Origin: Paracoccaceae bacterium
Lineage (GTDB): Bacteria > Pseudomonadota > Alphaproteobacteria > Rhodobacterales > Rhodobacteraceae
Length of the DNA: 64,000 nucleotides
Reading direction: 5' to 3'
Assembly (NCBI GenBank): GCA_019429405.1
Contig: JAHYIZ010000001.1
Span: 44,035 to 108,034 of the forward strand
The position numbers and the translations under genes are program-made. Below, piece by piece: positions 5,660 through 63,438 of this stretch. The notes under the pieces were generated by a model. It ran no database searches and was not told the DNA's origin. It saw nothing but the letters and a program-made list of their open reading frames with translations. Position 1 is the first letter of the stretch. Each line of letters begins with the position of its first letter.

Positions 5660-6499
5660 TCAGGCGCGCATTTTTGCGGTCGGGGCCTTCCATGGCGGCA
5701 AAATGGTGGGCGCGCCGAAGTAATAGCCCTGCATGCAGTCGATGCCGAGGCCTTGCAGAAAGGCCGCATCGCGCGCGTTCTCAACCGACTCGGCCACGGT
5801 GAACATGTCGAAGTGCCGCGCGATCGACATCAAGGCCTGCGTCAGCACCTGGTTGTCGGCGCTTTCGGCAATGCCCCGAATGAACTGACCGTCAATCTTG
5901 ATGATGTCGAAGTAGAACTCGCGCAGGTAGCGAAACGAGGTATAGCCCGCGCCGAAATCATCGAGCGCGAAGGAGACGCCGCGCTGCTGCAGATCTTGCA
6001 TGAATACCGACACGAGTTCGGGCATGACCATGGCCGAGCTCTCGGTGATTTCGAGGATCAGCCTTTCGGCTGCGGTGTCATCCTTCGCCAGGCCACGGTT
6101 GAGCGTCTTGAGCCAGTTCGGGTAGCCGATCGAGCGCGCCGACATGTTGATGGCCAGCCGCAGGCCGGGGTCTTCGGCCAGTGCGATCAGGCCCATTTCC
6201 AATGACAGGCAGTCGATCTTGCGGCCAAGCTCGGTGGTTTCGATGGTTTCTATAAAATCCTTGGCGGGGATGATGCGCCCGGTCTCGTCAAGCAACCGGA
6301 TCAAGCCCTCGTAGAATGCAGGCCGATCAGGGCGGGCGCCCTGCACGATCGGCTGAAACGCCAACACGACATCTCGCCGGTCTACCGCGCGGCGCACCAG
6401 CGACATGGTTTCACGGTCACGCTCGGCCACGGCGTAATCAAGCGGGCTAACCAAACCCGGCTCGACCGGCTGGCTTGGCGGACATTCGCGCTGATGCAT
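5660..6499 (-). CDS. EAL-domain cyclic-di-GMP phosphodiesterase (stand-alone EAL)
   Basis: 279 aa with the motifs FQPIV, LEITES, DDFGAGYTSFRYL, IKIDGQFI, AESVE and QGYYFG. Confidence 0.85.
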   Translation of the reverse strand: MHQRECPPSQPVEPGLVSPLDYAVAERDRETMSLVRRAVDRRDVVLAFQPIVQGARPDRPAFYEGLIRLLDETGRIIPAKDFIETIETTELGRKIDCLSLEMGLIALAEDPGLRLAINMSARSIGYPNWLKTLNRGLAKDDTAAERLILEITESSAMVMPELVSVFMQDLQQRGVSFALDDFGAGYTSFRYLREFYFDIIKIDGQFIRGIAESADNQVLTQALMSIARHFDMFTVAESVENARDAAFLQGLGIDCMQGYYFGAPTILPPWKAPTAKMRA

Positions 6500-6688
6500 G
6501 GCCTACTCCTTGGTGCCTTGCCGCAATGTCGCCGCGAAGCAGCTAAGAAGGGGTAAAAGATCGCGTTTGCCTCGAATTGCGGCGATTTCGGTCGGGGCAG
6601 GAAATTGCTCTGCCGCTGGCCAGATGCAACTGCGCGTTAACGCGGGCCTTTTATGTTCGGCGCAAATGTCGGTCACGAGGGGTCAGGG

Positions 6689-27330: not shown

Positions 27331-27531
27331 ATGCCCAAGATGAAGACCAAGTCTGCGGCCAAGAAGCGGTTTACCTTTACCGCATCGGGGCGCGCAAAAT
27401 CGGGTGTCGCCGGCAAGCGTCACGGCATGATCAAACGCTCGACAGACTTCATCCGCAATGCCACCGGCACCATGCTGCTGTCGGCTGCGGATACGAAGAT
27501 CGTCAAGAAATACATGCCCTACGACCGCTGA
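27331..27531 (+). CDS. rpmI: 50S ribosomal protein L35
   Basis: [14 protein letters not shown]..., 66 aa. GAGGAG lies upstream of the ATG. Confidence 0.95.
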
Positions 27532-27543
27532 GGAGAAACACCC

Positions 27544-27909
27544 ATGTCTCGCGTCAAATCCGGCGTCGTAACGCACGCCCGTCACAAGAAGATCATCAAG
27601 GCCGCTGCGGGCTACTATTCCGCCCGTTCACGCAATTTCAAAACCGCTACGCAGGCGGTTGACAAGGCCAACCAATACGCCACCCGCGACCGCAAGGCCC
27701 GTAAGCGCAACTTCCGCGCGCTGTGGATTCAGCGGATCAACGCAGGGGTGCGCGCGTTCGACGCTGAAATGACCTACTCGCGCTTCATCAACGCGCTGGA
27801 ACTGGCGGGCATCGCGGTTGACCGCAAGGTGCTGGCCGATCTGGCCGTGCACGAACCCGAAGCGTTTGGCGCCATCGTCACCAAGGCGAAGGCAGCGCTG
27901 GCCGCGTAA
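27544..27909 (+). CDS. rplT: 50S ribosomal protein L20
   Basis: [17 protein letters not shown]..., 121 aa. Confidence 0.95.
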
Positions 27910-28041: not shown

Positions 28042-29124
28042 ATGGCGGGTCTTGAAGCGCTCAAGGGCAAGTATCTGGCGGGCATCGCGGCAGCAGCCGA
28101 TGAGGCCGCGCTGGAAGAGATCAGGCTGGCTGCCCTTGGCAAGAAGGGCGAGATCAGCCTGATGATGCGCGAGCTTGGCGGCATGGCGCCCGAGGCGCGG
28201 CAGGCGGCGGGGGCGCGGCTCAATGCCCTGAAGGATGAGATCGACGCGGCACTGCGCGCGCGCAAGGCGGGGCTGGCCGATGCGGCGCTTGATGCGCGGC
28301 TGGCGGCGGAATGGCTCGATGTGACCTTGCCGGGGCGGCCGCGCCGCGTTGGCACCATCCACCCGGTCAGCCAAGTGATGGACGAGGTCACCGCGATTTT
28401 CGCCGACATGGGCTTTGCCGTGGCCGAGGGGCCGCAGGTGGAAAGCGACTTCTTCAACTTCGACGCGCTGAACATCGCCCCCGAGCACCCGGCGCGGCAG
28501 GAACACGACACCTTTTTCATGGCCCGGGCCGAGGGCGACACCCGCCCGCCGCATGTGCTGCGCACCCACACCAGCCCCGTGCAGATCAGGGCGATGCAGG
28601 CCCAAGGCGCGCCGATCCGCGTGATCGCGCCGGGGCGGGTGTACCGGATGGACATGGACCAGACCCACGCGCCGATGTTCCATCAGGTCGAGGGCCTCGC
28701 CATTGGCCGCGACATTTCGATGGCCAACCTCAAATGGACGCTGGAAGAATTCTGCCGGGCGTTCTTCGAGGTGGACAACGTCGAACTGCGCTTTCGCGCC
28801 AGCCACTTTCCCTTCACCGAGCCTTCGGCCGAGGTCGATATCCGCTGTTCATGGGCGGGCGGGCAGTTGAAGATTGGCGAGGGCGAAAGCTGGCTGGAAA
28901 TTCTCGGTTCCGGCATGGTGCACCCCAAGGTGCTGGCGGCGGCGGGGGTGGACCCGACCCAGTGGCAGGGCTTTGCCTTTGGCATGGGCATCGACCGGCT
29001 GGCGATGCTGAAATACGGCATCCCCGACCTGCGCGCCTTCTTCGAAAGCGACCTGCGGTGGCTGAGGCATTACGGCTTTGCGCCGGGTGATGTGCCGACG
29101 GTGCATGGGGGGTTGAGCAGGTGA
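28042..29124 (+). CDS. pheS: phenylalanine--tRNA ligase alpha subunit
   Basis: 360 aa. Contains [22 protein letters not shown] and FHQVEGL. Confidence 0.95.
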
Positions 29125-29125
29125 A

Positions 29126-29575
29126 ATGAGTCTACTCGATAAATTCAAAAACTGGGCCGATCTTCGTTTGCGCAAGTCGCAAATCAAAATACTTTATCAA
29201 AATCAATGTGCTGTTGAATTCTTAATGGGAGTTCACCAGACATTTCTGGAAGCAAAAATGACAAATGATGCAACCGCGCTCTCCGAGCTTGTTGCGTTAA
29301 AGGGGTTCGTAAACGACGCAATTATCTCACTTACCTACAAGACTTGCTTGGAAGACCCGGCTTCCGCTCAACTATTACAAATCAACAATATTTTGAAATT
29401 AAACTACGCTGCCATCAATGAAGGACAGAGATTATCCCGCGCTCAATTTGGTATGCCAAGCGGCGACCTTGTCGATTTTGCCAAGCGATTTGCACCCGCC
29501 GCCGGATGGGAGCTTCTCTCTGACAATGAGTGGGATGGAATGGTCCATCGTGCTTTGGAAAGCCTTAAAACATGA
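29126..29575 (+). CDS. AT-rich orphan gene inserted between pheS and pheT (unknown function)
   Basis: 149 aa and the only long ORF here. It starts 1 nt after the pheS stop, and its stop overlaps the pheT ATG (ATGA). I counted 33% and 43% GC in the two interior lines, against 63% in the flank. Confidence 0.6.
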   Translation: MSLLDKFKNWADLRLRKSQIKILYQNQCAVEFLMGVHQTFLEAKMTNDATALSELVALKGFVNDAIISLTYKTCLEDPASAQLLQINNILKLNYAAINEGQRLSRAQFGMPSGDLVDFAKRFAPAAGWELLSDNEWDGMVHRALESLKT

Positions 29576-31980
29576 AACTCACCCTCTCCTGGCTGCGCGA
29601 CCATCTGGAAACCTCGGCCAGCGTCACCGAAATCGCCGACGCCCTCACCGACCTCGGGCTTGAGGTCGAGGAGATCACCAACCCCGCCGCCCGACTTGCC
29701 CCTTTCACGCTGGCCCGCGTGCAATCGGCCGCCCAGCACCCCGACGCCGACAAGCTGCGGGTGTGCATGGTGGAAACCGACGAGGGGGTAAAGCAGATCG
29801 TCTGCGGCGCGCCCAATGCGCGGGCGGGCATTACCGTGGTGCTGTGCAAGCCCGGCGACTATGTGCCGGGCATTGATGTGACCCTTGGCATCGGCAAGAT
29901 CAGGGGCGTCGAAAGCCACGGCATGATGGCCTCGGAACGCGAGCTTGAGCTTTCGGATGAACACAACGGCATCATCGAGCTGCCCTCGGGCGAGGTCGGG
30001 CAGAAGTTCACCGACTGGCTGGCCGAAAACCGCCCCGAAACCATCGACCCTGTGATCGAGATCAAGATCACCCCCAACCGCCCCGATGCGCTTGGCATTC
30101 GCGGCGTCGCGCGTGACCTTGCGGCACGCGGGCTTGGCCGCCTGAAGCCGCTTGAAATTGAGCCGGTGCCGGGTGGCTTCGCCAGCCCGATCAGCGTCAC
30201 CATCGACCCTGCGCTAAAGGGCAAGGGCTGCCCGCTGTTTGCGGGTCGCCTGATCCGGGGCGTCACCAACGGCCCCAGCCCGGCCTGGCTGCAACAGCGG
30301 CTTCTGGCGATCGGCCTGCGGCCCATCTCGGCGCTGGTCGATATCACCAACTTCTTCACCTATGACCTGAACCGCCCCTTGCACGTCTTCGACGCCGCCA
30401 AGGTCAAAGGCGGGTTGCGCATTCACCCGGCCAAAGGCGGAGAAGAATTGCTGGCGCTTGATGGCAAGGCCTACACGCTGCGCCCCGGCATGATGCTGAT
30501 ATCCGACGAGGAAGGCCCCGAGAGCCTTGCCGGCATCATGGGCGGCGAGCATTCGGGCTGCACCGAAGCCACAACGGATGTGTTCCTTGAAAGCGCCTAT
30601 TGGGACCCGATCACCATCGCCGCAACTGGCCGCGCCCTGAAGATCAGCTCGGATGCGCGCTACCGGTTTGAACGCGGCGTAGACCCCGCATTCACCCTGC
30701 CGGGGCTGGAACTCGCCACCGCGATGGTGCTGGAACTTTGCGGCGGCGAGGCGAGCGACGTGGTGCTCGATGGCGCCGTGCCCGATACCGCCCGCGCCTA
30801 CAAGCTTGACCCCGCGCGGGTGCAAAGCCTCGTGGGGATGGAAATTCCCGAGGCCACGCAACGCGCCACGCTTGAGGCGCTGGGGTTCACCATCAGCGGC
30901 GACATGGTTACGCCGCCGACATGGCGCCCCGATGTGCTGGGTGAGGCCGATCTTGTTGAAGAGGTGGCGCGAATCGCCTCGCTCACCAAGCTGCAGGGCC
31001 GCCCGTTGGCACGTGAGACCACCGGCGTGCCAAAACCGATCCTGACGCCGATGCAGATGCGCGAAAAGGCGGCGCGGCGGATGCTGGCGGCTTTGGGCTA
31101 CAACGAATGCGTCAGCTACAGCTTTATCGATGCCGCCTCGGCCACCCTGTTTGGTGGTGGGCAAGATGCCACGCGCATTGAAAACCCGATCAGCAGCGAA
31201 ATGTCCCATCTGCGCCCAGACCTGCTGCCGGGCCTGTTGCAGGCGGCCGCGCGCAATCAGGCGCGGGGCTACGCCGACCTCGCGCTGTTTGAGGTCGGCC
31301 CCGCTTTTACCGGCGGCGAACCGGGTGAACAGGTCTTGCAGGCCACCGGCCTGTTGGTGGGCGCCACGGCGCCGCGCGATGCCTTCGGTTCGCGCCGGAG
31401 CCCTGATCTTTACGATGCCAAGGCTGATGCCGAGGCGACTTTAGCCGCAATAGGCGCCCCAGCCAAGGTGCAGATCACCCGCAAAGTGCCGGGCTGGTGG
31501 CACCCTGGCCGGTCGGGGGCAATGGCGCTGGGGCCGAATGTGATGTGCACCTTTGGCGAAGTGCACCCGCGCGTGCTGCGCGATATGGGGGTCAAGGGGC
31601 CCGCAGTTGCCTTTACGCTGCACCTCGATGCAGTGCCGTTCCCGAAACTGAAATCACGCACCCGCCCGGCACTGATGCTTTCTGACCTTCAGGCGGTCGA
31701 ACGCGACTTTGCCTTTGTGGTCGATGCGCGCGTTGAGGCGCTGACGCTGGTCAACGCCGCTGCCGGGGTCGACAAGGCCTTGATCGAATCGGTGCGGGTG
31801 TTTGACCAGTTTATCGGCGAAAAGGCCGAGGCGCAGATGGGCGCGGGCAAAAAATCAATCGCGCTCTCGGTGCGGTTGCAGCCCAAAGACAAGACGCTGA
31901 CCGAAGCCGAGATTGAGTCGGTCTCGTCGAAGATCGTCGAAAAGGTCACAAAAGCCACAGGTGGCGTGCTGCGCAGCTAG
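29572..31980 (+). CDS. pheT: phenylalanine--tRNA ligase beta subunit
   Basis: 802 aa. MKLTLSWLRDHL N-terminus, with tRNA-binding, B3/4, B5 and FDX-ACB-like regions. Confidence 0.95.
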   Translation: MKLTLSWLRDHLETSASVTEIADALTDLGLEVEEITNPAARLAPFTLARVQSAAQHPDADKLRVCMVETDEGVKQIVCGAPNARAGITVVLCKPGDYVPGIDVTLGIGKIRGVESHGMMASERELELSDEHNGIIELPSGEVGQKFTDWLAENRPETIDPVIEIKITPNRPDALGIRGVARDLAARGLGRLKPLEIEPVPGGFASPISVTIDPALKGKGCPLFAGRLIRGVTNGPSPAWLQQRLLAIGLRPISALVDITNFFTYDLNRPLHVFDAAKVKGGLRIHPAKGGEELLALDGKAYTLRPGMMLISDEEGPESLAGIMGGEHSGCTEATTDVFLESAYWDPITIAATGRALKISSDARYRFERGVDPAFTLPGLELATAMVLELCGGEASDVVLDGAVPDTARAYKLDPARVQSLVGMEIPEATQRATLEALGFTISGDMVTPPTWRPDVLGEADLVEEVARIASLTKLQGRPLARETTGVPKPILTPMQMREKAARRMLAALGYNECVSYSFIDAASATLFGGGQDATRIENPISSEMSHLRPDLLPGLLQAAARNQARGYADLALFEVGPAFTGGEPGEQVLQATGLLVGATAPRDAFGSRRSPDLYDAKADAEATLAAIGAPAKVQITRKVPGWWHPGRSGAMALGPNVMCTFGEVHPRVLRDMGVKGPAVAFTLHLDAVPFPKLKSRTRPALMLSDLQAVERDFAFVVDARVEALTLVNAAAGVDKALIESVRVFDQFIGEKAEAQMGAGKKSIALSVRLQPKDKTLTEAEIESVSSKIVEKVTKATGGVLRS

Positions 31981-34983: not shown

Positions 34984-36102
34984 TTACATCGCCAACGCGG
35001 CCTGCGGCGTGATGCTGGGCAGCCCCAAAGCCTCGCCCACCGCAGCATAGGTCAGCTGCCCCGCGTGCACGTTCAGCCCCGCAAGCAGATGCGCATCATC
35101 GGCGCAGGCCTGCTTCCAGCCCTTGTCGGCAAGCGCCAGCATGAAGGGCAGCGTCGCGTTGCCAAGCGCCAGCGTCGAGGTGCGCGCCACCGCGCCCGGC
35201 ATATTGGCCACGCAATAATGGAGCACGCCGTCAACCTCATAGATCGGGTCCTGGTGGGTGGTGGCATGACTGGTCTCGAAACAGCCGCCCTGGTCGATTG
35301 CCACATCCACCAATGCCGCCCCCGGTTTCATGGTCTTCAGCTGCGCGCGGCTGATCAGTTTGGGCGCAGCCGCCCCCGGCACCAACACCGCGCCAATCAC
35401 CAAGTCGGCCTCGGTGATCAGTTCGGCGATGTTGCCGGCACTCGCATAGGCGGTCTTGAAATCGCGCCCGAACACATCATCGAGATAGCGCAGTCGCGGC
35501 AGCGAACGGTCGAGCACGGTCACATCCGCACCCATGCCTGCCGCAACCCGCGCCGCATGCGTGCCCACCACACCACCGCCAATGACCAGAACCCTCGCGG
35601 GCGCAACGCCCGGCACTCCACCCAGCAACACGCCGCGCCCGCCATTGGCCTTTTGCAGCGTCCACGCACCCACTTGCGGCGCCAATCGCCCCGCCACTTC
35701 GGACATCGGCGCCAGCAAGGGCAAGCCGCCGCTGCGGTCGGTCACGGTTTCATAGGCGATGCAGGTGGCGCCCGATTTCAAAAGGTCGGCGGTCTGTTCC
35801 GGGTCTGGTGCAAGGTGCAGATAGGTGAACAACACCTGCCCCTTGCGCAACCGCGCGCGTTCTACCGGCTGCGGCTCCTTGACCTTCACAATCATCTCTG
35901 CGGCGGCAAATACGCTTTCGGCGTCAGGCAGTATCACCGCCCCGGCGGCGACATAATCGGCATCAGCAAAGCCCGACCCCAGACCGGCGCCGGTCTCGAT
36001 CAACACCTCGTGGCCATGCAGCACCGCTTCGCGCGCAGCGTTCGGTGTGATGCCGACGCGAAACTCCTGCGGCTTGATTTCTTTTGGGCAGCCGATCTTC
36101 AT
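34984..36102 (-). CDS. ald: alanine dehydrogenase
   Basis: Trimmed to MKIGCPKEIKPQEFRVGITP; 372 aa with the NAD motif VIGGGVVG. Confidence 0.92.
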   Translation of the reverse strand: MKIGCPKEIKPQEFRVGITPNAAREAVLHGHEVLIETGAGLGSGFADADYVAAGAVILPDAESVFAAAEMIVKVKEPQPVERARLRKGQVLFTYLHLAPDPEQTADLLKSGATCIAYETVTDRSGGLPLLAPMSEVAGRLAPQVGAWTLQKANGGRGVLLGGVPGVAPARVLVIGGGVVGTHAARVAAGMGADVTVLDRSLPRLRYLDDVFGRDFKTAYASAGNIAELITEADLVIGAVLVPGAAAPKLISRAQLKTMKPGAALVDVAIDQGGCFETSHATTHQDPIYEVDGVLHYCVANMPGAVARTSTLALGNATLPFMLALADKGWKQACADDAHLLAGLNVHAGQLTYAAVGEALGLPSITPQAALAM

Positions 36103-36241
36103 CTGGGAATCCTCATGTGACCTGACGAATAGTGTGGCGCAGCATCGGCGCAATTGCTTTGCAAAGATCGGTGGTGCAAGCGCAGCAATTGAATGATATC
36201 TTCTGTTGATAGCCCACAAACTCGCAGAAACGTGCAAGCAA

Positions 36242-36700
36242 ATGGCAATTGACGCAACAGACCGCCGAATCCTTGCTGCCCTGCAAAAGCAAGGTCGGAT
36301 GACCAATGCCGAGCTGTCAGAGCAGGTGAACCTTTCGGCCTCCGCATGCTACCGCCGTGTGCAGCGATTGGAAACTGACGGCTATATCCGCGACTATGTC
36401 GCGCTCTTGGATGCGCGCCGCCTTGGCCGCCCAACCACAGTTTTTGTGGAGATCACGCTTTCGGGGCAGGCCGACGAAGTGCTGGATGCGTTCGAGCGCG
36501 AAGTGCGCAAAATTCCTGATGTGCTCGAGTGTCACCTGATGGCGGGCAGCGCCGACTATCTGCTGAAGGTGGTGGCCGAGGATACCGAAGATTTCGCGCG
36601 AATCCATCGCGCCTATCTTGCGCGGCTTCCGGGCGTCGCGCAGATGCAAAGCTCGTTCGCGCTGCGCACGGTGTTCAAGACCACCGCCCTGCCGATCTGA
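36242..36700 (+). CDS. Lrp/AsnC-family transcriptional regulator
   Basis: 152 aa, DRRILAALQKQGRMTNAELSEQVNLSASACYRRV. Divergent from ald, the usual regulator arrangement. Confidence 0.88.
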   Translation: MAIDATDRRILAALQKQGRMTNAELSEQVNLSASACYRRVQRLETDGYIRDYVALLDARRLGRPTTVFVEITLSGQADEVLDAFEREVRKIPDVLECHLMAGSADYLLKVVAEDTEDFARIHRAYLARLPGVAQMQSSFALRTVFKTTALPI

Positions 36701-61972: not shown

Positions 61973-62452
61973 ATGGCGAGCGCAAAGAACTCGATCTGCA
62001 TCTGGTATGACACCGAGGCCGAAGCCGCCGCGCGCTTTTACGCCGCGACCTTTCCCGACAGCGCGGTGACAGCGGTCCGCCGCGCGCCAAGCGACTTCCC
62101 GTCGGGCAAGGCTGGCGATGTGCTGACGGTCGAATTCACGGTTGCGGGCATTCCTTGCATCGGGCTGAACGGCGGGCCCGGGTTCGCGCAAAGCGAGGCC
62201 TTTTCGTTCCAGATCGCCACCGATGACCAGCACGAAACCGACCGCTACTGGAATGCCATCGTCGGCAACGGCGGAAGGGAAAGCGCCTGCGGCTGGTGCA
62301 AAGACAGGTGGGGCATCTCATGGCAGATCACCCCACGCGCGCTGACCGAGGCCATGGCTGCCGGTGGCGATGAGGCCCGACGCGCGTTCGAGGCGATGAT
62401 GAAGATGGGAAAGATCGACGTCGCCAAGATTGAGGCGGCGCGAAGGGGATGA
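61973..62452 (+). CDS. VOC-superfamily protein (PhnB / 3-demethylubiquinone-9 methyltransferase-like domain)
   Basis: Trimmed to MASAKNSICIWYD. Contains FYAATFPDS...GLNGGP...FSFQI and CGWCKDRWGISWQI. Confidence 0.75.
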   Translation: MASAKNSICIWYDTEAEAAARFYAATFPDSAVTAVRRAPSDFPSGKAGDVLTVEFTVAGIPCIGLNGGPGFAQSEAFSFQIATDDQHETDRYWNAIVGNGGRESACGWCKDRWGISWQITPRALTEAMAAGGDEARRAFEAMMKMGKIDVAKIEAARRG

Positions 62453-62481
62453 TGTGGGGCGGGGAGGAAGGCCAAACATTC

Positions 62482-63438
62482 ATGCCCGTCTACCTGGACC
62501 AGAATGTGCTTAGTCGGTTGCAGCCAAAATCCCTTGGGCGCGACTCCCTCTTGGACTCCCTTCGTGAAATGGCCAAGAGCGGCGCGGTCTACGTCTATTC
62601 CTTTGTGCATGTCGCGGAAAGTCGGGCTTCGGGGCGGGCGGAAGTTTTCGCGGCAATCTTGGACGAAATCGATGCCTGCTTTCTTGAGCCCAAAAGCATG
62701 AATGACGCCGAGGTGACTCTTTCCCGATGCCGTGCGCGAGAAATGCTGCTTGCGGAGCATGGGTTCCTTGATGATGCAGTGCGAGGGATGGAAGTAATGC
62801 TCAAGCTGATCCAGTTTGCGCTTGGTTGGCTGGGGGAGTTGGAAGAACGGGTGCTGCTGGACGAGTTGCAGGCCGAAATCAACTCTGTTTGGGCGTCTTT
62901 GGGACGTGAACTGCCGGAGTCATGGAGGGCGAAGTTGGAGCCAGCTTGGCACGAGATGTCAGATACCATTCAAGGTCTCCCACTTCATCAACTTCGCGCC
63001 GAAGGCCGGGCTGAGCAGCGTTCGCTTCGAGGATTGCTGCCAAATAACTACGCACAGCTTGACGAAAAACCCTCTGAAACGGCGGCGTCCTTCATTTTCG
63101 CGCGATTGGACGAGAACGAGCGGAGGAAGATCCAGGAGGTCTTTCCGCTCGGGTTCTGGTCAGAAATCGAAAAGCGCGAGGATGGGCTTCTGGCCGGATT
63201 CTCCTTTATGCTCTTCATCCACGGGCTTGTCAGGGACAGGCGGACGAGAGCGAAAGGGCGTGATCGCCGCGAGAAGCATTTTCTTGGACAGTTTCGTGAT
63301 TGCCAGCACATAGAAGCTGCGACCTGCTGCAGAGCTTTTGTGACTTTTGATAGCGGGGCGGCGAGATTGGCAAAGGCAGCGTATGCCTACGCCGGAGCAA
63401 CCACCGAGGTCATTCATCTGACAAGTCAAAATCCATGA
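62482..63438 (+). CDS. orphan protein with PIN-like terminal signatures
   Basis: GGAGGAAGG lies upstream of the ATG at 62482. 318 aa with N-terminal VYLDQNVLS and C-terminal H..AA.C.AFVTFD (63337-63351). The lines I counted are 55-58% GC. Confidence 0.5.
   Translation: MPVYLDQNVLSRLQPKSLGRDSLLDSLREMAKSGAVYVYSFVHVAESRASGRAEVFAAILDEIDACFLEPKSMNDAEVTLSRCRAREMLLAEHGFLDDAVRGMEVMLKLIQFALGWLGELEERVLLDELQAEINSVWASLGRELPESWRAKLEPAWHEMSDTIQGLPLHQLRAEGRAEQRSLRGLLPNNYAQLDEKPSETAASFIFARLDENERRKIQEVFPLGFWSEIEKREDGLLAGFSFMLFIHGLVRDRRTRAKGRDRREKHFLGQFRDCQHIEAATCCRAFVTFDSGAARLAKAAYAYAGATTEVIHLTSQNP

Follow-up and report, generated by a model that had tools for sequence, protein, structure and literature searches.

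What is a small AT-rich gene doing between pheS and pheT, the genes for the alpha and beta subunits of PheRS, in the DNA of a Paracoccaceae bacterium, and how did it come to be there? The 64-kb stretch analysed here (the window; positions are numbered within it unless a locus of another genome, designated by L and a number, is named) contains at this junction an open reading frame (ORF) for a protein of 149 amino acids, in the following called gene X. A first-pass annotation had described X as a foreign gene inserted into a compact operon junction. Comparison with related genomes revealed the pheS-pheT junction as a hypervariable cassette slot extending from the pheS stop to the pheT start, with X as one of its alleles; the slot was occupied in every Rhodobacteraceae lineage sampled. 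Passages in two papers describe the minimal mobile element (MME) as a pair of conserved genes flanking whole-gene cassettes that differ and are taken up by homologous recombination (PMC3082526, PMC3787668). X is probably a functional accessory cassette in such a hypervariable slot of the MME type between the essential genes pheS and pheT of Rhodobacteraceae.

Occupants of the pheS-pheT slot in related genomes

The closest relatives of the window, found by probing with PheS, had no X and carried other genes at the same position (Table 1), which bore out the view of X as a foreign or accessory gene and spoke against an ancestral gene of normal GC content present in all relatives. The gene order FGase-pyk-rpmI-rplT-pheS ... 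pheT-GMC oxidoreductase was common to the window, L022 and L024. In nucleotide alignments (blastn) of the window with these two loci, homology ended at the pheS stop (29124-29126) and resumed at the pheT start (29569-29572), and no part of the intervening sequence could be aligned. The cassettes of L022 and L024 had 50-53% GC, started with a GTG overlapping the pheS TGA and ended in TGA-A-ATG or in an ATGA overlap with pheT, the latter in the DUF2513 cassette of L024 as in X. Similarly, the slot contents of L037 and L042 differed between flanks that were 95% and 93% identical overall and 95-99% identical right beside the slot. Order and orientation of the flanking genes pheS and pheT were constant across the window, L012, L013, L015, L018, L022-L025 and L028-L042, with slot sizes of 0.3-1.1 kb. 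Profile comparisons (hhalign) detected no remote homology of X to the other slot occupants, which were also mutually unrelated; the slot is home to at least seven unrelated families.

Virtual deletion of 29126-29571 yielded GGTGAA joined to ATGAAACTC, exactly as the first-pass annotation had claimed. The compact empty junction thus recreated was seen in none of about 17 related lineages, the shortest slot being that of Albidovulum sediminis (381 nt). X does sit at the junction, as proposed, but a one-off insertion had to be abandoned since the slot is occupied by varied genes in all sampled lineages. DUF2513, one of the families in the slot, has relatives in 103 plasmid records and 40 phage records; in one phage the gene is placed like a moron. 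The literature yielded no information on the function of DUF2513 or of DUF4304, a family to which genes downstream of X in two loci show similarity (see below). A PADLOC search gave no match for X or nine other slot proteins. Palindromes resembling repetitive extragenic palindromic (REP) sequences, of the form GTAGGG...CCCTAC or GTAGGGYGCGCTTCAGCGC, were located inside the slots of L041, L042 and L013 (about 6470-6500).

Gene X, its coupling to pheS and pheT and its family

The first-pass ORF, with its start 1 nt past the pheS stop and its stop overlapping the pheT start, was confirmed (Table 1). Judged from the sequence, the 5' junction AGG-TGA-A-ATG is a putative termination-reinitiation arrangement, and this junction type, a spacing of 0-1 nt or an overlap, was also present in the X loci L005, L010, L012, L013, L014, L015 and L019. 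A scan of the plus strand within X found no promoter-like or terminator-like sites, and Rfam had no match in the region. Beyond the 4-nt ATGA, no flanking terminal inverted or direct repeats were detected at the X cassette by the repeat scan, and the ORF list contained no transposase nearby in the window, in agreement with the earlier observation; the neighbours of X within about 3 kb were housekeeping genes only. Lacking a promoter, a terminator, a transposase and repeats of its own, X must therefore be co-expressed with pheS and pheT, and the junction anatomy likewise supports the claim that translational coupling was kept despite the presence of X in the operon. On the minus strand, a sigma-70-like promoter match lies inside X (29431-29459; TTGGCA-17-GATAAT, 10/12), which could have arisen by chance or be one of the spurious promoters that foreign AT-rich DNA often contains.

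According to this anatomy, X would be transcribed on an rpmI-rplT-pheS-X-pheT mRNA. Ribosomes ending at the UGA of pheS would reinitiate at the AUG of X 1 nt downstream, and ribosomes ending at the UGA of X would reinitiate at the overlapping AUG of pheT, so that translation of pheT would depend on X. The X protein would be made constitutively alongside PheRS, and the dependence of pheT on X would entrench whatever fills the slot. An essential aminoacyl-tRNA synthetase operon may in this way serve as a landing pad: a gene placed between the pheS stop and the pheT start would gain constitutive transcription and coupled translation and would be hard to lose without harm to pheT expression.

Table 1 Features of the pheS-pheT operon in the window and occupants of the corresponding slot in other genomes (TM, transmembrane; SD, Shine-Dalgarno; MAG, metagenome-assembled genome)
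Feature	Position	Strand	Description
rpmI (ribosomal protein L35)	27331..27531	+	First gene of the operon; ORF translation, synteny with Ribosomal_L35p genes of relatives
rplT (ribosomal protein L20)	27544..27909	+	ORF; Ribosomal_L20 at the same place in relatives
pheS (PheRS alpha subunit, 360 aa), conserved left flank	28042..29124	+	PheS 98%, 96% and 92% identical to L022, L024 and L027
5' junction AGG-TGA-A-ATG	29119..29128	+	SD-like AGG within the pheS end (29119-29121), pheS stop TGA (29122-29124), single spacer A (29125), X start ATG (29126-29128)
Cassette gene X	29126..29575	+	149 aa; soluble, slightly acidic (pI 6.1), all-alpha orphan; GC 44%
3' junction ATGA	29572..29575	+	X stop TGA (29573-29575) overlapping pheT start ATG (29572-29574); read from sequence
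pheT (PheRS beta subunit, 802 aa), conserved right flank	29572..31980	+	ORF; nucleotide homology to L022 and L024 restarts at the pheT ATG
Slot of L022/L023			231-aa orphan with N-terminal TM segment; PheS 98% identical to window
Slot of L024/L025			120-aa DUF2513 protein (E 1e-20); PheS 96% identical to window
Slot of L027 (Phaeovulum sp.)			112-aa DUF2513-like protein; PheS 92% identical to window
Slot of C. sphaeroides 2.4.1 (CP000143.2)	L028 4117-4833		238-aa multi-TM protein, normal GC; then ~390 nt and a 73-aa minus-strand ORF
Slot of R. capsulatus	L034 4125-4841		238-aa TM protein, unrelated to that of C. sphaeroides; GC 44%; own SD and spacers
Slot of L037			164-aa orphan
Slot of Albidovulum sediminis	L042 4084-4464		381-nt insert; minus-strand mini-ORF, REP-like hairpin
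Slot of Paracoccus MAG	L041 4084-4720		Weak Y1-transposase-like (RAYT-like) minus-strand ORF flanked by REP-like palindromes
Slot of L016			TM197, a Cys-rich 3-TM protein (zinc-ribbon-like by eye)
Slot of L021			DUF2513 gene directly after pheS

In NCBI, X is deposited as hypothetical protein K0B00_00370 of a Rhodobacteraceae MAG. An indexed search of 5.8 billion protein clusters returned four clusters, X itself included, and an exhaustive search of 1.84 billion representatives returned 22 at E<=0.001, with 1-3 members in each of the clusters examined; only four short unnamed proteins were gained from a profile search of 5.8 billion proteins. Homologs of X thus amount to about 25-30 among about 15 billion proteins. 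Where named, they belonged to Rhodobacterales or other Alphaproteobacteria, nearly all were encoded directly 3' of pheS, and the sole cultured host was Frigidibacter albus (WP_161342879.1). With X, 22-23 homologs shared 21-72% identity and the conserved motifs LRxSQIKILYQN, NxxLKxxY and FxxRFxPAxGW..SDxEWD; ten residues were invariant in the family alignment (R16, Q25, N26, A29, N87, L90, Y94, F118, G127 and W128). The reading frame was unbroken in all copies, and the ratio of nonsynonymous to synonymous divergence (omega) was 0.088 for L001-L005, the pair with measurable synonymous divergence (dS). By these measures X has to be regarded as a genuine protein-coding gene under purifying selection. 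A non-functional ORF, be it an AT-rich spacer, a decaying remnant or an assembly chimera, is almost certainly the wrong explanation. The exact sequence is indeed present in one assembly only (P0001, a single 381-kb contig), but homologs with the same pheS-X junction were independently assembled from ENA, JGI, Logan and NCBI samples, which speaks against the assembly artefact considered in the first-pass annotation, and the invariant residues, the low omega, the frame intact everywhere and a confident structure prediction (pLDDT 95) from 22 aligned sequences point in the same direction.

On the 22-sequence alignment, AlphaFold2 predicted a soluble helical bundle (pLDDT 95.2, pTM 0.88) with three long helices (3-42, 50-71, 77-107), two further helices (118-121, 133-145) and a small C-terminal subdomain. 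In the model, the conserved polar residues R16, Q19, Q25, N26, N87 and Y94 would be placed on helices 1 and 3, adjoining the invariant C-terminal F..RF.PA.GW loop. The earlier description of the protein as helical and free of a TM helix agreed with the all-helical model and with the lack of a TM-like segment in the sequence scan. X had no match in Pfam, NCBIfam, PADLOC or PHROGs and none in the PDB, neither by sequence nor by profile; comparison of the 22 family members one by one with Pfam gave scattered single-member sub-threshold matches only. A Foldseek search of the model against the PDB and BFVD yielded best E values of 0.4-1.0 and TM-scores below 0.5, all to generic helical bundles. No homolog of X was detected in viral contigs, phage records or plasmid records, and X contained no catalytic motif. 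Sequence and structure searches of the 149-aa protein, as suggested at the outset, thus presented a confident helical model and no family or fold match. X belongs to an extremely rare orphan family; neither the Rhodobacteraceae slot nor the X family was found described in the literature searched.

The position of X relative to pheS was largely constant. X followed pheS directly, at a spacing of -1 to +1 nt, in the window and in L005-L009, L010-L015 and L017-L019, and in L005 and L010 it adjoined pheS although pheT was no longer downstream. Another gene stood between pheS and X in L001, L016 and L021. In L001-L004, the place directly after pheS was taken by u136, a distant paralog of X (25% identity, pairwise E 7e-10, 63% GC). 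An alpha/beta-hydrolase gene followed X in L018, and a similar ORF ran to the contig end in L019. Downstream of X in L010 (6503-6943) and L013 (6463-7188) was a DUF4304-like gene of normal GC content, assigned by sub-threshold Pfam matches (E 3e-4 to 3.5e-3), the two copies being 46% identical.

This linkage could be explained by X being a PheRS-associated factor, i.e., an accessory subunit, a regulator or a protector of PheRS or tRNA-Phe, kept beside pheS for joint function. X was located directly after pheS in most of about 17 loci, even where pheT was not adjacent, and is translationally coupled to pheS, as such a factor might be. However, we consider this explanation very improbable. The nearest relatives, with PheS 92-98% identical, had unrelated genes in the slot, hence X does not co-occur with PheRS; moreover, at least seven unrelated families share the slot, therefore a PheRS-specific role of X is unlikely. 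The family is extremely rare, with its 25-30 sequences, and X was parted from pheS in L001, L016 and L021 and not downstream of pheS in L020. The linkage itself has a simpler cause, as a promoterless gene with a 1-nt spacer is inseparable from its upstream gene.

Two observations on the X loci may be added. L020 (940-1768) holds the only X copy without pheS upstream; it is oriented divergently to rpmI-rplT at a distance of about 500 nt, and the contig ends inside X; a palindrome, GGTGACGT...ACGTCAC, is located about 20 nt upstream of the X ATG and might be an operator. Furthermore, pheT no longer follows pheS in L005, L010, L016, L021 and L027, and the last three of these loci keep a short pheT 5' fragment only (e.g., MKFTLNRLKTHLDTEASL...DLGLE). 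In these genomes the essential pheST operon has thus been split, with pheT presumably elsewhere in the genome.

Movement of cassettes and base composition of X

In the PheS tree, X carriers were scattered, and the window's own clade bore other cassettes. Between L013 and L015, X was ~96% identical on the nucleotide level with a dS of 0.067, compared to ~85% and a dS of 0.75 for the adjacent pheS, ~85% for pheT and 60-80% for the downstream gene and interval with the DUF4304-like gene, which is below the identity of pheT. The tract of high identity extended from within 4 nt of the X ATG to ~40 nt past the X stop, just beyond a small hairpin, and a REP-like palindrome marked the 3' end of the transferred unit. 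The breakpoints coincide with the cassette edges, therefore X moved recently between the L013 and L015 lineages as a discrete unit.

A second type of evidence came from remnants of the flanking genes. The order in L001-L004 was pheS, u136, a pheS 3' remnant (~110 nt, frameshifted) and X; in L016 it was pheS, TM197, a pheT 5' remnant (~30 codons) and X; in L021 pheS, the DUF2513 gene, a pheT' remnant and X; and in L027 pheS, the DUF2513 gene and a pheT' remnant. The remnants varied in length between about 12 and about 110 nt. Such scars would be left by incoming DNA that recombined through a conserved flank on one side and was joined illegitimately on the other. In L016 and L021, the stretch preceding X was also considered as a decayed pheS end, which was rejected because its translation revealed a pheT 5' fragment.

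We propose that genomes would swap cassettes by recombination, with anchor points at the conserved ends of pheS and pheT or within them, and that occasional illegitimate joins would leave pheS 3' and pheT 5' fragments between stacked cassettes. Gene transfer agents (GTA) are plausible vehicles. According to passages in two papers, RcGTA is conserved in Rhodobacterales, and the ~4.5-kb fragments that it transfers enter by allelic replacement (PMC9690577, PMC9836097). A fragment of this size would fit a cassette plus homology on both sides: pheS, X and pheT together measure 3.9 kb, so one GTA particle could carry the cassette with both flanks. As no imported or divergent tract was present beside the slot, flank-mediated homologous exchange of cassettes is plausible rather than demonstrated.

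The base composition of X differed strongly from that of its flanks. X had 44.2% GC and a GC content at third codon positions (GC3) of 44.7%, compared to 66.9% and 84.5% for pheS and 64.9% GC for pheT, and it was the lowest-GC 450-nt stretch of the window (mean 0.645, sd 0.036, z = -5.6). Recomputed values for 29161-29220, 29221-29280 and 29041-29100 (33.3%, 43.3% and 63.3%) matched the earlier counts exactly. In eight lineages, X had 44-54% GC and pheS 60-68%, with L016 as an exception (X 52%, pheS 57%); wherever the host genome was clearly GC-rich, X had a lower GC content than the host. The other slot cassettes ranged from 41 to 54% GC beside pheS genes of 57-68%, except for the C. sphaeroides 238-aa gene, u136 and the DUF4304-like genes, which had a normal GC content. 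The GC3 of X was 0.42-0.65 in hosts with a pheS GC3 of 0.70-0.90, though the X copies are synonymously saturated. Plain amelioration after one ancient transfer fails to account for this persistent low GC, leaving either a repeated re-import of X from lower-GC Rhodobacterales or a selected AT-richness.

Outside the operon, the second-lowest GC region of the window (62449-63438, plus strand; 450-nt minimum 53.6%) holds a 329-aa ORF with no Pfam match, which may be another accessory gene. A mild GC dip at 35950-36550 (minimum 54.7%) is a divergent intergenic region between two ORFs that we take, by eye rather than by Pfam, to be alanine dehydrogenase-like (minus strand) and Lrp/AsnC-type regulator-like (plus strand); it looks like an ordinary promoter region.

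Selected AT-richness would fit an old, vertically inherited Rhodobacteraceae gene, its low GC maintained by selection, e.g., for an unstructured mRNA that aids coupling, and lost or replaced in the relatives of the window. The presence of X on many branches of the PheS tree, deep ones included, its low GC in nearly every lineage and not in recent arrivals only, and the saturated dS of most X pairs, a sign of old divergence, are in line with such a history. Nevertheless, we give it little credence. About tenfold less synonymous divergence of X than of the adjacent pheS between L013 and L015 needs a recent transfer. The unrelated slot-mates are GC-poor too, thus a low GC is a property of the slot cargo and not specific for X, and the paralog u136 with its normal GC (63%) demonstrates that the family has no need of AT-rich coding.

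As the transferred unit of L013/L015 was so sharply delimited, the 5' breakpoint being no more than 4 nt from the start codon and the 3' one just past the small hairpin, a dedicated site-specific mechanism has to be weighed, i.e., an integron-like, homing-type or trans-acting recombinase system that moves cassettes at pheS-stop/pheT-start junctions. Codon-exact cassette boundaries in three close relatives and flanks free of an imported divergent tract beside the slot agree with it. This is nonetheless distinctly unlikely: no recombinase, nuclease motif, attC-like site or terminal repeats were found in or near the window cassette, and the junctions vary among overlaps, 1-nt, 9-nt and 33-62-nt spacers, the last with their own SD in Rhodobacter/Cereibacter, instead of presenting a single core site. 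The remnants of variable length resemble illegitimate or homology-facilitated joins, and codon-exact boundaries could also result from selection for pheT coupling. A homing endonuclease was not supported, as no nuclease domain was detected by Pfam and the helical-bundle model had no PDB neighbour. A broader alternative combines movement and cargo: the junction would be an expression-coupled cassette site of a kind not recognised before, at which promoterless single genes are swapped as codon-exact units, without import of flank DNA as in L013/L015, by an active or microhomology-guided mechanism, the cargo serving in defence, immunity or against invaders (X with a new helical fold), held at low frequency by balancing selection and entrenched via pheT. 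We regard this combination as rather unlikely.

Several observations weigh against X as an MME-type cassette and have to be set beside the evidence for it. X is still GC-poor in all high-GC hosts despite deep divergence, with dS saturated in most pairs. The identity profiles of the window, L022 and L024 and of L037 and L042 exhibited no mosaic or divergent tract beside the slot. In L013/L015 the 5' breakpoint was located at the edge of X and not inside pheS, which simple RecA-mediated flank exchange does not predict. The sample of ~17 lineages is small and biased, since the X loci came from searches with X. Finally, PADLOC recognised neither X nor its slot-mates, no X relative was found on a phage or plasmid, and a protective role is suggested by analogy only.

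Related systems and possible function of the cargo

The MME concept and the site MMEpheST of N. meningitidis and N. gonorrhoeae reportedly go back to Saunders & Snyder 2002 and Snyder et al. 2007. Four of five MME features were observed at the Rhodobacteraceae slot: conserved flanks, differing cassettes, deviating base composition and the absence of mobility genes and repeats, the last with one exception elsewhere, the weak Y1-transposase-like ORF with REP-like palindromes in the Paracoccus slot. For the fifth feature, homologous recombination, the picture is divided, as flank remnants and the L013/L015 transfer were seen, but no mosaic flank tract, and the breakpoint lay at the cassette edge. 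MMEpheST is a named site in Neisseria and carries strain-specific restriction-modification systems in N. meningitidis (PMC1797815; PMC3082526). The slot shares with it the flanking pair pheS/pheT, differing whole-gene cassettes in close relatives, a cargo of lower GC than the genome and often of unknown function, and the lack of a transposase or integrase. The differences concern host, cargo and flanks. Unlike the naturally transformable Neisseria, Rhodobacteraceae would receive the DNA by GTA, conjugation or phage; the cargo is usually one small promoterless ORF, codon-exact and coupled to both flanks, in contrast to the restriction-modification systems of Neisseria, and no known restriction-modification or defence gene was found by PADLOC in the Rhodobacteraceae slots. 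Flank mosaicism, a hallmark in Neisseria, was not detected here. The slot is probably an MME-class site, carrying a new orphan family, at a gene pair for which an MME is on record from a different phylogenetic class.

Another variable region at these genes is core defence hotspot 1 (cDHS1) of P. aeruginosa, flanked by rplT-pheS-pheT and with a GC content lowered to 58.9% vs 65.3% (Johnson et al. 2023, PMC10250203). Like the slot, cDHS1 is a variable region at rplT-pheS-pheT, with core flanks conserved in every isolate; no single type of mobile element is associated with it, and the majority of its genes have not been characterised. It is situated downstream of pheT-ihfA-merR-tRNA-Pro, however, not between pheS and pheT, and with 1-224 kb, many multi-gene systems and a recognised defence system in 84% of the loci it contrasts with the 0.3-1.1 kb of the slot, where none was recognised. 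Tested as a defence hotspot, the slot presented a variable region between core genes, but PADLOC revealed no enrichment of recognisable defence systems. Together with Neisseria MMEpheST and Pseudomonas cDHS1 (next to pheT), the Rhodobacteraceae slot extends variable regions at or next to pheS-pheT to three proteobacterial classes. Such recurrence suggests a feature inherent in the locus in general, whose two adjacent genes are long, essential, strongly expressed and highly conserved and would anchor recombination. The pattern on the level of the locus, a convergent pheS-pheT hotspot with codon-exact coupled cassettes, is of more interest than the single gene X.

Integron cassettes are promoterless single ORFs that form arrays at one site of the chromosome and depend on an external promoter for expression; their functions are diverse and mostly unknown. 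The slot cassettes resemble them as promoterless, externally expressed and sometimes stacked single ORFs. They differ in being bounded by essential genes and translationally coupled, and the X cassette has neither 3' non-coding DNA for an attC, the stop overlapping the pheT start and leaving no room, nor a suitable inverted repeat, nor IntI, attI or another integrase among the neighbouring ORFs. Orphan toxin/immunity modules downstream of cdiA or rhs consist of stacked cassettes split by displaced fragments of the upstream gene. The pheS 3' remnant in L001 and the pheT 5' remnants in L016, L021 and L027 correspond to this signature of cassette replacement within a conserved gene. Here, however, the conserved genes are housekeeping genes and not toxins, and no toxin domain or known immunity family was found. 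Phage morons and free-standing accessory genes are small AT-rich genes between conserved phage genes, often acting in host/phage conflict. X is likewise small, AT-rich and seamless between conserved genes, and its slot-mate DUF2513 was moron-like in one phage; unlike a moron, X resides in a chromosomal housekeeping operon and is without a phage homolog.

These precedents bear on the function of X. It is possible, as a tentative suggestion by analogy, that X has a strain-variable conflict function exerted by partner binding, e.g., toxin immunity or interference with phages or other invaders, rather than a modulation of PheRS. Pointers to such a role are the rarity, the low GC and the rapid divergence of X, slot-mates that are membrane proteins or linked to mobile elements, and the MME and defence precedents. 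A membership in a toxin-antitoxin or immunity system was not evident, as no cognate toxin was adjacent, X is a single ORF between housekeeping genes, and no Pfam or NCBIfam family matched; stray sub-threshold matches to Imm2 and Imm58 occurred in one X-family member each. X may be an orphan immunity gene of a new family. Among the roles listed in the first-pass annotation, a defence gene on an undeletable operon or a selfish orphan thus remained the best fit, by analogy only, and the part that would need a known defence family found no match. The slot offers a compact, easily surveyed pool of uncharacterised small proteins, including X with its confident model and no fold neighbour in the PDB or the viral structure library. 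Rhodobacterales are an ecologically important order with tractable models, among them R. capsulatus and C. sphaeroides, each of which has a gene in the slot; RcGTA provides a direct transfer assay.

The gap between rplT and pheS, upstream of the slot, also varied in its content. A GT2 glycosyltransferase gene was located there in L001/L002 (L001 1127-2035) and in L005/L006 (L005 4008-4901) and a GNAT acetyltransferase gene in L027 (3463-3915); the gap measured only ~130 nt in the window, L022 and L024. It may be a second variable position of the same operon.

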